64,000 nt of DNA from Escherichia coli (GTDB taxonomy: Bacteria; Pseudomonadota; Gammaproteobacteria; Enterobacterales; Enterobacteriaceae), in the NCBI RefSeq assembly GCF_001677475.2, contig NZ_CP015229.1, one strand, 5' to 3'. The notes below the pieces were generated by a model. It was not told the origin of the DNA. It did not search any database and saw only the letters and a list, made by a program, of their open reading frames with translations. How positions within the stretch are numbered: the first letter of the stretch is position 1; the number at the start of each line of letters is the position of its first letter. The position numbers were made by a program, and so were the translations under genes. Positions 2,918 through 11,892 of this stretch are shown here, piece by piece.

Positions 2918-3961
2918 TTAACGGGTGATCCACAACGTGGGCCAGGCGTCTGGCCCATGCCAGTTATCGCAGGTGGGTTCTGCGGCGTAACGCACCAGGC
3001 GAAAACGCTGACCGTCAAAGCGCCAGCGCGCCTGAATGCCACAATCGCTTAATCCGCGCCCTTTCGCTAAGGTCACCAGTTCACGCGATTTCTCATCAAA
3101 TGTTGCGTTCATCAGTTCCAGTTCATTCGTCTCCTGACCGTTGTTGAACGGCAAACGCAACCGAACCGGGCGCGAGGCCAGCGGCTTTTTACGCGACACA
3201 ATCCATGCCAAATCAATGGTGTTATAGGCCCCTGCCTCACAGCTAATCATCATCAGCGCTTTATCATCAGTCAGCGCAGTGACATTCACCTCACGACGCA
3301 ATGGATCAAGCGAGCAGCGCAGACCATTCATCCGCCAGTTTCCATAATCCAGCAAATCGTTGCGTTCTTCGAGTGAGAGTGGCGTCGGCGTTGGGTTAAC
3401 CACCACAACCTCTTTCAGCGCAGGCGCGGGCGGTACGCTGAGCGGCGGTTCGTCCCCTTTCTTGATCCAGGCGGTTTCACTGCCAACGCGCTTTTGCTGA
3501 GCATCAATAAACAACAACGCCGCTTTTAAGCCGCTCAGAGAAATGGTCTGATTGCCGTCGCGTAAGGTGATCGCCTTCCCTTCCTGAATTATCTGCAAAA
3601 ACGCGGTGATGGTTGCCGTATCATCGGTTACTAATAACCATGGTGAAATCCGCCACTTGTCACCACTTAACGCCAACGGCTCACCATCTAACAGCAGCCG
3701 TGGCGCTATCTCCCCTTCAGACGCATCCGGCGACTTCAACCCGCCGCGCTCAATACGTAAAACGGCATCAGTATGCGCCCCGGCGCTGCGGCTCAGGGTC
3801 ATCACCAGTCCATTATGATCGCCCGTATTGCGCGCCACACAAAAATTTTGATTATTACAGGTGACCTGCCAGTCGGAAAACGCCTGTTGCGCTGGTGCCG
3901 CCCACACCAAAGACGTCGGCAACAAAGCGAAAAAAAAGAGAAGGAAAATGCGATAGCGCAT
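2918..3961 (-). CDS. ypfG: DUF1176 periplasmic protein YpfG
   Basis: 347-aa ORF with N-terminal signal peptide (MRYRIFLLFFFALLPTSLVWA); K-12 position and length. Confidence 0.88.
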   Translation of the reverse strand: MRYRIFLLFFFALLPTSLVWAAPAQQAFSDWQVTCNNQNFCVARNTGDHNGLVMTLSRSAGAHTDAVLRIERGGLKSPDASEGEIAPRLLLDGEPLALSGDKWRISPWLLVTDDTATITAFLQIIQEGKAITLRDGNQTISLSGLKAALLFIDAQQKRVGSETAWIKKGDEPPLSVPPAPALKEVVVVNPTPTPLSLEERNDLLDYGNWRMNGLRCSLDPLRREVNVTALTDDKALMMISCEAGAYNTIDLAWIVSRKKPLASRPVRLRLPFNNGQETNELELMNATFDEKSRELVTLAKGRGLSDCGIQARWRFDGQRFRLVRYAAEPTCDNWHGPDAWPTLWITR

Positions 3962-6914: not shown

Positions 6915-8615
6915 GTGATTGTTAAACGACCCGTCTCGGCCAGTCTGGCCCGGGCCTTTTTTTACATTGTGCTGCTGTCGATTCTTTCCACGGGTATCGC
7001 TCTGCTAACTCTGGCGAGCAGTTTGCGCGATGCTGAGGCTATCAATATTGCCGGATCGCTGCGTATGCAGAGTTACCGCCTGGGCTACGACTTGCAAAGT
7101 GGCAGTCCACAACTCAATGCACATCGCCAGTTATTTCAGCAGGCACTGCATTCACCGGTATTAACCAACCTCAACGTCTGGTATGTGCCAGAAGCAGTAA
7201 AAACTCGCTATGCGCATCTGAATGCCAACTGGCTGGAGATGAATAATCGGCTCAGCAAGGGCGATTTGCCGTGGTATCAGGCCAATATTAATAATTATGT
7301 TAATCAGATAGACCTGTTCGTGCTGGCTTTACAGCACTACGCTGAACGCAAAATGCTGCTGGTGGTGGCGATTTCCCTGGCTGGCGGCATCGGTATTTTC
7401 ACGCTGGTCTTTTTTACTTTGCGCCGCATACGCCATCAGGTGGTTGCCCCGCTGAATCAGCTGGTTACCGCCAGTCAGCGTATTGAACACGGGCAGTTCG
7501 ACTCGCCGCCGCTGGATACCAGCCTGCCGAATGAGCTTGGCCTGCTTGCAAAAACCTTTAACCAGATGTCGAGCGAGCTGCATAAATTGTACCGTTCGCT
7601 GGAGGCGTCAGTAGAAGAAAAAACTCGCGATCTCCACGAGGCCAAGCGTCGTCTGGAGGTGTTGTATCAGTGTTCGCAGGCGCTGAACACCAGCCAGATT
7701 GATGTGCATTGTTTCCGCCATATTTTGCAGATTGTTCGCGACAATGAAGCGGCTGAATACCTGGAGTTAAATGTCGGTGAAAACTGGCGGATTAGCGAAG
7801 GGCAACCAAACCCGGAATTGCCGATGCAGATTTTACCGGTGACAATGCAAGAGACGGTTTACGGCGAACTGCACTGGCAAAATAGTCACGTTTCATCATC
7901 AGAACCGCTGCTTAACAGTGTTTCGTCGATGCTGGGACGCGGTTTGTACTTTAATCAGGCGCAGAAGCATTTTCAGCAGTTATTGTTGATGGAAGAACGT
8001 GCGACCATCGCCCGCGAATTGCACGACTCGCTGGCTCAGGTACTTTCTTACTTACGTATCCAGTTGACGTTACTGAAGCGTTCGATACCGGAAGATAATG
8101 CCACCGCACAAAGTATCATGGCCGATTTTTCCCAGGCGCTGAATGATGCTTATCGGCAGTTACGCGAGCTGTTAACTACTTTCCGCCTGACGCTGCAGCA
8201 GGCGGATCTCCCCTCCGCGTTGAGGGAAATGCTGGATACGTTACAAAATCAAACCAGCGCCAAACTGACCCTCGACTGCCGTCTGCCAACCCTGGCGCTG
8301 GATGCGCAAATGCAGGTGCATTTGTTGCAAATTATTCGCGAAGCGGTGCTGAATGCGATGAAGCACGCCAACGCCAGCGAAATCGCCGTTAGCTGCGTCA
8401 CCGCGCCGGATGGCAATCACACAGTCTATATTCGCGACAACGGGATTGGCATCGGTGAACCGAAAGAACCCGAAGGCCATTATGGTCTGAATATCATGCG
8501 CGAACGCGCGGAAAGATTGGGTGGGACGCTGACTTTTTCGCAACCTTCCGGCGGCGGCACGTTAGTGAGTATTAGCTTTCGCTCTGCGGAGGGTGAGGAA
8601 AGTCAGCTGATGTAA
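6915..8615 (+). CDS. narQ: nitrate/nitrite sensor histidine kinase NarQ
   Basis: ORF 6900..8615; likely GTG start at 6915 giving 566 aa (MIVKRPVSASLAR...); two TM segments, HAMP, histidine kinase domain. Confidence 0.9.
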   Translation: MIVKRPVSASLARAFFYIVLLSILSTGIALLTLASSLRDAEAINIAGSLRMQSYRLGYDLQSGSPQLNAHRQLFQQALHSPVLTNLNVWYVPEAVKTRYAHLNANWLEMNNRLSKGDLPWYQANINNYVNQIDLFVLALQHYAERKMLLVVAISLAGGIGIFTLVFFTLRRIRHQVVAPLNQLVTASQRIEHGQFDSPPLDTSLPNELGLLAKTFNQMSSELHKLYRSLEASVEEKTRDLHEAKRRLEVLYQCSQALNTSQIDVHCFRHILQIVRDNEAAEYLELNVGENWRISEGQPNPELPMQILPVTMQETVYGELHWQNSHVSSSEPLLNSVSSMLGRGLYFNQAQKHFQQLLLMEERATIARELHDSLAQVLSYLRIQLTLLKRSIPEDNATAQSIMADFSQALNDAYRQLRELLTTFRLTLQQADLPSALREMLDTLQNQTSAKLTLDCRLPTLALDAQMQVHLLQIIREAVLNAMKHANASEIAVSCVTAPDGNHTVYIRDNGIGIGEPKEPEGHYGLNIMRERAERLGGTLTFSQPSGGGTLVSISFRSAEGEESQLM

Positions 8616-8690
8616 TGCCTCTTATTGACCAAAGAATAGTGGCACTTAAGGTTCAGTATAAAAGGGCATGATAATTTACATTAACTCCTT

Positions 8691-8708
8691 TTTTTCTCCA
8701 CGATTGGC
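8691..8708 (+). promoter_or_regulatory. BaeR response-regulator binding box in acrD promoter
   Basis: tttttctccacgattggc ~70 bp upstream of the acrD ATG, matching the BaeR box consensus TTTTTCTCCATDATTGGC as I recall it. Confidence 0.6.
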
Positions 8709-8778
8709 TCGTACCTTGCCGCTACAGTGAAGCAAGTCAAGCCTACAACGATACGCAGAAACACGAGGTCCTCTTTTA

Positions 8779-11700
8779 ATGGCGAATTTCTTTATTGATC
8801 GCCCCATTTTTGCCTGGGTGCTGGCAATCCTGTTGTGTCTGACAGGTACCCTGGCGATTTTTTCATTGCCCGTTGAACAATACCCCGATCTCGCGCCACC
8901 GAATGTGCGAGTGACCGCTAACTATCCCGGCGCATCGGCCCAGACGCTGGAAAACACCGTGACCCAGGTTATCGAGCAAAATATGACCGGCCTCGATAAT
9001 CTGATGTATATGTCGTCTCAGAGCAGTGGTACCGGTCAGGCATCTGTCACTTTAAGTTTTAAAGCAGGCACCGATCCGGACGAAGCCGTGCAGCAAGTAC
9101 AAAACCAGCTGCAATCAGCCATGCGAAAGTTACCGCAGGCGGTGCAAAATCAGGGCGTGACGGTGCGTAAAACCGGCGATACCAACATTCTGACCATTGC
9201 CTTCGTCTCTACCGATGGTTCGATGGATAAACAGGATATTGCTGATTATGTTGCCAGTAATATTCAGGACCCGTTAAGCCGCGTGAATGGCGTCGGGGAT
9301 ATCGATGCCTATGGTTCGCAATATTCCATGCGTATCTGGCTGGACCCGGCGAAACTCAACAGTTTCCAGATGACGGCTAAAGATGTCACTGATGCCATTG
9401 AGTCACAGAACGCGCAGATTGCGGTTGGGCAACTTGGTGGTACACCTTCCGTCGATAAGCAGGCGCTCAACGCCACCATTAACGCCCAGTCACTGCTGCA
9501 AACACCAGAACAGTTCCGCGATATCACCTTGCGGGTGAATCAGGACGGCTCAGAGGTAAGGCTGGGCGATGTCGCCACCGTCGAAATGGGGGCGGAGAAA
9601 TACGATTATCTTAGCCGCTTCAATGGTAAACCAGCCTCCGGGCTGGGGGTAAAACTGGCCTCCGGCGCGAACGAAATGGCGACAGCGGAGCTGGTACTCA
9701 ATCGTCTCGACGAGCTGGCGCAGTATTTTCCACACGGACTGGAATACAAGGTGGCGTATGAAACCACCTCGTTTGTTAAAGCCTCCATTGAAGACGTGGT
9801 GAAAACGCTGCTGGAAGCTATCGCCCTGGTTTTCCTCGTTATGTATCTGTTCCTGCAAAACTTCCGCGCCACGCTGATACCCACTATCGCCGTGCCGGTG
9901 GTGTTGATGGGAACCTTCTCCGTACTATACGCCTTCGGTTACAGCGTCAACACATTAACCATGTTCGCGATGGTGCTGGCGATCGGTCTGCTGGTGGATG
10001 ATGCCATCGTGGTGGTGGAAAACGTCGAACGTATTATGAGTGAGGAAGGACTCACTCCTCGCGAAGCCACACGTAAATCGATGGGGCAGATCCAAGGGGC
10101 ACTAGTCGGGATTGCGATGGTTCTTTCGGCGGTATTTGTACCAATGGCCTTCTTCGGCGGCACCACCGGTGCCATCTATCGCCAGTTCTCTATTACCATT
10201 GTTGCGGCGATGGTGCTGTCTGTACTGGTAGCGATGATCCTCACTCCGGCTCTGTGTGCCACGCTACTTAAGCCACTGAAAAAAGGTGAGCATCACGGGC
10301 AAAAAGGCTTTTTTGCCTGGTTTAACCAGATGTTTAACCGCAACGCCGAACGCTACGAAAAAGGGGTGGCGAAAATTCTCCATCGTAGCCTGCGCTGGAT
10401 TGTGATTTATGTCCTGTTGCTTGGCGGCATGGTGTTCCTGTTCCTGCGTTTGCCGACGTCGTTCTTACCGCTGGAAGACCGGGGCATGTTTACTACCTCG
10501 GTACAATTGCCCAGCGGTTCAACCCAACAACAGACCCTGAAAGTCGTTGAGCAAATCGAGAAATATTACTTCACCCATGAAAAAGACAACATCATGTCGG
10601 TGTTTGCCACCGTTGGCTCTGGCCCTGGGGGCAACGGGCAAAACGTGGCGCGAATGTTTATCCGCCTGAAAGACTGGAGCGAACGCGACAGTAAGACCGG
10701 CACCTCATTTGCCATTATTGAACGTGCAACGAAGGCGTTTAACAAGATTAAAGAAGCTCGCGTTATCGCCAGCAGCCCGCCAGCAATTAGCGGTCTTGGC
10801 AGTTCTGCGGGTTTTGATATGGAGTTGCAGGACCACGCTGGAGCGGGTCACGATGCGCTGATGGCAGCACGTAACCAGTTGCTGGCGCTGGCGGCGGAAA
10901 ACCCGGAGCTAACCCGTGTGCGCCATAACGGCCTCGACGACAGTCCGCAGTTGCAGATTGATATCGACCAGCGTAAAGCTCAGGCGCTGGGCGTTGCTAT
11001 CGACGATATTAACGACACACTGCAAACCGCCTGGGGTTCGAGCTATGTGAATGACTTTATGGATCGCGGTCGCGTGAAGAAAGTCTATGTGCAGGCAGCT
11101 GCGCCGTATCGCATGCTGCCAGATGACATTAATCTCTGGTATGTCCGAAATAAAGATGGCGGCATGGTGCCCTTCTCTGCTTTCGCGACCTCACGCTGGG
11201 AGACAGGCTCACCGCGTCTGGAACGCTATAACGGTTATTCTGCGGTTGAGATTGTTGGGGAAGCCGCACCGGGGGTCAGTACCGGTACGGCGATGGATAT
11301 TATGGAATCGTTAGTGAAGCAGCTGCCAAACGGCTTTGGTCTGGAGTGGACGGCGATGTCGTATCAGGAGCGGCTTTCCGGCGCGCAGGCTCCGGCGCTG
11401 TACGCCATTTCCTTGCTGGTGGTATTCCTGTGTCTGGCGGCGCTGTATGAAAGCTGGTCGGTGCCGTTCTCGGTAATGCTGGTCGTGCCGCTGGGGGTTA
11501 TCGGCGCGCTGCTGGCAACCTGGATGCGCGGGCTGGAAAACGACGTTTACTTCCAGGTGGGCCTGTTAACGGTCATTGGTTTATCGGCGAAAAACGCCAT
11601 CCTGATCGTCGAGTTTGCTAACGAGATGAACCAAAAAGGCCACGACCTGTTTGAAGCGACGCTCCACGCCTGCCGTCAGCGTTTACGCCCGATTCTGATG

Positions 11701-11892
11701 ACCTCGCTGGCATTTATCTTCGGCGTATTGCCAATGGCAACCAGCACGGGTGCCGGTTCCGGTGGTCAGCATGCGGTGGGTACTGGCGTAATGGGCGGGA
11801 TGATTTCGGCCACTATTCTGGCTATTTACTTCGTGCCGCTGTTCTTTGTGCTGGTGCGCCGCCGCTTCCCGCTGAAGCCGCGCCCGGAATAA
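8779..11892 (+). CDS. acrD: RND-family aminoglycoside efflux pump AcrD
   Basis: 1037-aa ORF, 12-TM RND transporter ([19 protein letters not shown]...); K-12 length. Confidence 0.95.

Follow-up and report, generated by a model that had tools for sequence, protein, structure and literature searches.

The 18-mer TTTTTCTCCACGATTGGC upstream of acrD in the window (the whole 64,000-nucleotide stretch of Escherichia coli DNA analysed here) is not merely similar to the documented BaeR box of acrD: it is that box, and as such is already known. It is very probably a direct operator through which the response regulator BaeR controls the acrD promoter. Four observations carry this assignment, namely the match to the BaeR consensus, the BaeR-dependent expression of acrD, a phylogenetic footprint over the site, and a fixed spacing between the box and a −10 hexamer. 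The site is the cis-element that places AcrD, an exporter of aminoglycosides, beta-lactams and enterobactin, under the BaeSR envelope-stress response, and by this textbook route enterobacteria gain inducible tolerance, at a low level, to drugs and metals. The site is real, strongly conserved and ordinary, and its confirmation brings nothing new; what the comparison of promoters contributes are incremental refinements, which comprise an invariant 14-nt core, an 11-bp tandem repeat, a fixed spacing to a conserved −10 element and a conserved 5′ block. These may help to build a better BaeR position weight matrix or to reconcile a negative ChIP-exo result with direct control.

The acrD box and its match to the BaeR consensus

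The box lies in the 163-bp narQ-acrD intergenic region, between the narQ stop codon (8613-8615) and the acrD ATG at 8779 (Table 1). It covers −88 to −71 relative to the acrD start codon, on the + strand and in the same orientation as acrD. The downstream gene is identified by a score of 2265 bits on the NCBIfam AcrD equivalog NF007842 (cutoff 1854), and narQ, whose start was placed by taking the 1701 nt annotated in K-12 as its length, is the upstream neighbour, outside the regulatory element. A terminator scan of the intergenic region returned no matches, so the box is not part of any narQ terminator. Between 8642 and the end of the acrD start codon the window and K-12 MG1655 have the same sequence, so that published K-12 experiments can be carried over as they stand. 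The DNA is chromosomal, and the region is present in 5424 of 5426 complete E. coli genomes, in many of them at 100% identity.

Table 1. Coordinates of the features of the narQ-acrD region (window positions)
Feature	Position	Strand	Remarks
narQ CDS, nitrate/nitrite sensor kinase	6915..8615	+	930 bits on the NarQ equivalog of NCBIfam; so annotated by RefSeq in identical E. coli DNA
Conserved upstream block, (C)ATGATAATTTACATTA	8667..8683	.	alignment columns at least 90% conserved in the 80 promoters
Putative distal BaeR repeat, 11 bp, ATTAACTCCTT	8680..8690	+	pentamer ACTCC at 8684-8688; TCTCC in most orthologues
Published BaeR box, 18-mer, TTTTTCTCCACGATTGGC	8691..8708	+	one mismatch to consensus; conserved core TTTCTCCACGWTTG
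Predicted sigma-70 −10 hexamer, TACAGT	8723..8728	+	14 nt after the box; conserved in 75 promoters
acrD Shine-Dalgarno, GAGG	8765..8768	+	within conserved block ACGAGGTCC; 10 nt before ATG
acrD CDS, RND multidrug efflux permease, 1037 aa, regulated gene	8779..11892	+	ORF list; NCBIfam NF007842

The published BaeR consensus is 5′-TTTTTCTCCATDATTGGC-3′ (quoted in PMC3915751). The acrD 18-mer agrees with it at 17 of 18 positions, the sole mismatch being a C for T at position 11, and no other site in the 64-kb window comes within three mismatches of the consensus. A reading of the DNA made from the sequence only had described this stretch, in letters identical to those found at 8691-8708, as a close match to the BaeR consensus lying in the acrD promoter; both the match, judged against the consensus confirmed in PMC3915751, and the location hold. 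In K-12 the same box stands in the same orientation upstream of acrD, mdtA and spy: the mdtA motif, TTTTTCTCCCTTATTGGC, is on the coding strand 71 nt before the ATG and carries one mismatch, and the spy motif, TTTTTCTCCATAATTGGC, likewise on the coding strand, lies 156 nt before the ATG and is perfect. Because acrD was itself among the reported sites, its agreement with the consensus is partly circular, and the independent test is conservation across genera, which the site withstands as described below.

Conservation of the box in AcrD orthologue promoters

Orthologous promoters were collected from 80 AcrD loci (82-99% amino-acid identity) representing about 35 genera of Enterobacteriaceae plus Erwinia. 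Only the protein served to select the loci, each of which was taken with 1.5 kb of DNA upstream, and 79 of them were usable for box position. In 72 of these 79, the best consensus match in the 250 bp upstream of the gene was on the gene's strand, at −86 to −92 counted from the ATG, and it is the core TTTCTCCACGWTTG that occupies this position. By way of control, shuffled promoters averaged 6.6-7.4 mismatches, and the best matches in 250-bp windows of coding region had 4-7. In a MAFFT alignment of the promoters, column conservation reaches at least 90% over 8694-8707, as against 30-40% in the intergenic DNA nearer narQ. The form TTTCTCCACG[A/T]TTG of the core is nearly invariant. By contrast, the 5′ TT and the 3′ GGC of the 18-mer vary outside Escherichia, which indicates that the functional unit is not exactly the 18 bases usually quoted. 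Four conserved blocks emerge from the alignment: 8668-8690 (ATGATAATTTACATTAACTCCTT), the box core at 8694-8707, 8719-8728 (CCGCTACAGT) and the Shine-Dalgarno region at 8763-8770.

Two side observations concern the orthologue collection. One locus (CACSKA010000009.1), labelled Chryseobacterium sp. 18061, encodes an AcrD orthologue of 88% identity behind an enterobacterial promoter with a BaeR box, and the assembly is probably contaminated or mislabelled. In addition, the alignment of the published E. amylovora box TTCTTCACGATTACTGGC to the consensus (PMC3915751) appears to be about 3 nt off register with respect to the conserved core TTCTCCACGATT, judging by comparison with positions 1344-1361 of the Erwinia mallotivora locus.

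Within the species, seven E. coli alleles sampled across the identity range were compared. The 18-mer, the spacer that follows it and the −10 candidate are invariant in all seven, and all polymorphisms but one fall within 8607-8655.

BaeR dependence of acrD expression and reported binding of BaeR

Direct binding of BaeR in vitro to the acrD promoters of E. coli and Salmonella has been reported by others and is taken here at second hand, the primary papers being Hirakawa 2005 and Nishino 2005 and 2007. Only four BaeR binding sites have been reported in E. coli, that of acrD included (PMC2731931), and the core BaeSR regulon counts acrD among its members, alongside spy and mdtA (PMC3160322). RNA-seq data comparing a baeR knockout with the wild type in LB containing 5% ethanol give a log2 fold change of −2.91 for acrD (p = 2e-39; PMC7657598 supplement), a 7.5-fold drop under ethanol stress; in plain LB the value is −0.20, which is not significant (PMC7657598). 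The sequence-only reading had tied the pump to the BaeSR envelope-stress system, in agreement with the literature (PMC2731931, PMC3160322), and had named a lack of BaeR-dependent induction and a lack of motif conservation in orthologous promoters as objections to it. The fall in acrD expression in the knockout and the fixed position of the core in the orthologues show that neither objection applies.

The principal alternative is that BaeR controls acrD only indirectly, the conserved element being bound by another BaeR-dependent factor and the consensus match reflecting shared promoter architecture instead of contact with BaeR. Indirect regulation is the conclusion drawn by the authors of the mSystems study that supplied the RNA-seq data, whose ChIP-exo of tagged BaeR in 5% ethanol found peaks at mdtA and spy but none upstream of acrD and who classed acrD as indirectly regulated (PMC7657598). 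In their peak table, the box of mdtA (2153945-2153962) falls inside the peak at 2153931-2153967, but the two spy peaks, at 1825677-1825711 and 1825823-1825843, flank the perfect-consensus spy box at 1825764-1825781 and miss it (NC_000913.3 coordinates; 1825677-1825843 corresponds to 3678-3844 of the K-12 locus, L002, in the present collection). Since ChIP-exo thus cannot be relied on to flag the strongest BaeR site, let alone others, and since acrD is the weakest responder among the three BaeR targets acrD, mdtA and spy in these data, the missing acrD peak is only weak counter-evidence. Several further points speak against indirect control: the same core precedes all three strongly BaeR-dependent genes; the orthologous acrD promoter, that of Erwinia amylovora, is shifted by purified BaeR (PMC3915751); PMC2731931 and PMC10052836 cite regulation of E. 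coli acrD as direct, the latter with phosphorylated BaeR as a requirement; and what is conserved over about 35 genera follows the CTCC repeats that this subfamily of regulators recognises. Published evidence on physical contact is divided, but purely indirect control is unlikely, and direct binding of BaeR to the 18-mer remains the preferred reading.

CpxR, Fur and the conserved 5′ block

A second alternative is that the element is mainly a site for CpxR, or for another co-regulator, and that acrD depends on BaeR because the regulators act cooperatively or in a hierarchy. CpxR does influence the gene: in a cpxR knockout under stress acrD shows a log2 fold change of −1.87 (p = 8e-29; PMC7657598), and CpxR has been reported to enhance BaeR-mediated acrD expression (PMC2731931, PMC9600279). 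The effect is, however, reported to be strictly BaeR-dependent (PMC2731931). As to the DNA, a single GTAAA half-site of the CpxR type is found on the − strand at 8675-8679, within the conserved upstream block, but the 18-mer itself contains none, and GTAAA-N5-GTAAA with up to two mismatches does not occur in 8616-8778, so that a CpxR tandem box can be rejected for the intergenic region. I consider it very improbable that the element is primarily a site for CpxR or for another factor. Over the whole window such matches are in excess (64, as against 46 ± 6.6 expected, with none of 100 shuffles reaching 64), probably an effect of codon usage or composition.

The idea that the match arose by chance in T-rich intergenic DNA and does nothing in regulation is refuted by the conservation data and has a negligible probability. 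With three mismatches allowed, a match turns up in 14 of 100 shuffles of the window, but none of 100 dinucleotide-preserving shuffles contains a site at the single mismatch observed; in 72 of 79 promoters, moreover, the core hardly varies and keeps both its position and its strand, amid flanking DNA that is 30-40% conserved.

Upstream of the published motif, conservation continues for about another 23 bp, making the conserved element about 40 bp long. Directly 5′ of the BaeR repeats, (C)ATGATAATTTACATTAAC (8667-8685) is strongly conserved, and the dominant 14-mer of this upstream block is GATAATTTACAYTA. Scored against the 19-bp Fur-box consensus GATAATGATAATCATTATC, the best match of the intergenic region falls at 8667-8685 on the − strand with 13 of 19 positions, a marginal value given that 16 of 500 shuffles score at least 13. 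In 52 of 74 orthologues the same register again scores 13-14 out of 19, and nothing comparable exists at mdtA. That Fur influences the expression of acrD and mdtABC has been mentioned by Horiyama and Nishino as data not shown (PMC4178200). The putative link between Fur and the 5′ block is marginal and is kept here as a lead.

These elements might together make up a composite operator of about 40 bp (8667-8707), in which a BaeR-dimer site of two 11-bp direct repeats would be joined to the 5′ block TGATAATTTACAYTA, the latter being bound by another protein, perhaps Fur or CpxR, which would control the access of BaeR. The textbook 18-mer would then be only the proximal part of the operator, and an A/T polymorphism at 8684 would tune BaeR responsiveness between lineages. 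I put this forward tentatively, as a possibility rather than as the probable state of affairs. If true, the composite operator would link iron status to pump expression.

Putative tandem repeats and predicted promoter geometry

The 18-mer contains a promoter-proximal repeat at 8691-8701, with its pentamer TCTCC at 8695-8699, and the conserved WTTG at 8703-8706. When the orthologous promoters were anchored on the TCTCC of the box, a second TCTCC was found exactly 11 bp upstream in 57 of 75 and TCTTC at that place in 13 of 75; at offsets of 6-10 or 12-16 bp no upstream TCTCC occurred among the 75. The window itself has an ACTCC/TCTCC pair 11 bp apart, the distal repeat being degenerate here and in K-12. 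Tandem direct repeats of 11-bp units are the geometry expected for a dimer of the OmpR/PhoB family. Upstream of mdtA, CCTCC precedes the TCTCC by 10 bp, and the mdtA ChIP-exo peak covers the 18-mer plus 14 bp upstream of it, this CCTCC included (PMC7657598). The TCTCC at 11 bp in the orthologues, the mdtA CCTCC with its ChIP-exo peak and the DzrR footprint discussed below indicate a putative operator in which two 11-bp units, 8680-8690 and 8691-8701, follow each other in direct orientation, and of which the published 18-mer would capture the proximal unit together with the adjoining conserved WTTG.

The distal pentamer is itself polymorphic within E. coli. Position 8684 is A (giving ACTCC) in the window, K-12, O26 and O157, and T (giving TCTCC) in another E. 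coli locus of the collection (L003), in E. whittamii and in most other genera. This polymorphism could alter BaeR responsiveness between lineages.

In the alignment columns of the predicted −10 hexamer (75 promoters), T1, A2 and T6 are invariant and A4 is present in 74, position 3 being C, A or G. This pattern agrees with what is known of the functional constraint acting on −10 elements. The distance from box to hexamer is constant even in promoters with longer leaders, where insertions place the box at −216 (L055, Kosakonia oryziphila), −157 (L080, Erwinia mallotivora) or −109 (L062, Phytobacter diazotrophicus). The acrD mRNAs of these three species probably have long 5′ UTRs, and the fixed distance speaks for the box and the −10 element working as one unit.

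A scan of 8560-8830 revealed no consensus sigma-70 promoter with −35 and −10 elements separated by a spacer of 16-18 nt. The sequence TTGGCT (8704-8709) was considered as a canonical −35 and rejected, for it lies only 13 nt from TACAGT. The lack of a canonical −35 at the proper spacing fits an activator-dependent promoter. From the position of the hexamer, transcription is predicted to start at about 8735, relative to which the 18-mer would span about −44 to −27 and the distal repeat about −55 to −45. Among the entries listed in the Cappable-seq supplement (PMC4782308), none is a start site near K-12 2587550 in either coordinate version. A −10-like sequence begins 14 nt after the box in acrD and spy and 12 nt after it in mdtA, which is suggestive; a shared offset was nevertheless set aside as a general rule, spy having a stronger promoter candidate further downstream.

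A model for acrD activation

BaeR is a winged-helix response regulator of the OmpR/PhoB family. In the proposed mechanism, envelope stress (indole, copper or zinc, ethanol, tungstate, flavonoids) would activate the kinase BaeS, leading to the phosphorylation of BaeR. A dimer of phosphorylated BaeR would then bind head-to-tail to the direct repeats at 8680-8690 and 8691-8701, each of which carries a (T)CTCC core. So placed, the dimer would lie immediately 5′ of the −35 region and reach into it, at a weak promoter that has no usable −35 hexamer, and might recruit or stabilise sigma-70 RNA polymerase at TACAGT, thereby initiating acrD transcription. CpxR, which according to the literature enhances this activation only when BaeR is present, would do so through a putative contact. 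The two-repeat geometry of the dimer and the position of the start site are predictions from the arrangement of the DNA, and the mode of polymerase contact is likewise conjectural.

Comparison with known regulatory systems

The sites of the E. coli BaeSR regulon are those of mdtA, spy, acrD and ycaC, and the 18-mer of the window is the acrD one: same locus, same strand as the gene, 17 of 18 positions, with no essential difference. What the comparison across genera adds is that only TTTCTCCACGWTTG of the 18-mer is conserved.

A close parallel is provided by DzrR of Dickeya and Burkholderia, whose footprint upstream of the RND pump operon desAB, CGGTTCTCCATCATATCTCCATATT, contains two CTCCAT repeats 11 bp apart (PMC10052836). 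There too an OmpR-family regulator activates an RND pump from two direct CTCCA-type repeats with 11-bp periodicity located just upstream of the promoter, and the acrD orthologues have TCTCC followed at 11 bp by TCTCCAC. The systems differ in regulator and genera, in the distal repeat of the window, which reads ACTCC, and in that DzrR is reported to be active without phosphorylation. The direct repeat of AdeR upstream of adeABC in Acinetobacter shows the same CTCCA-type 11-bp arrangement, again at an RND pump.

The organisation of the promoter also recalls the Pho box. PhoB-activated promoters have a recognisable −10 but, where a −35 would be expected, direct repeats of 11 bp in tandem, and the activator is needed for transcription; the putative acrD operator likewise combines tandem 11-bp repeats with a recognisable −10 and no −35. 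The two differ in the sequence of the repeats and in their distance from the −10 element, which is 21 nt in acrD, from the end of the proximal repeat at 8701 to the start of the hexamer at 8723, as against about 10 nt for pho boxes. A further difference is the conserved WTTG that stands between the acrD repeat and the −10 hexamer.
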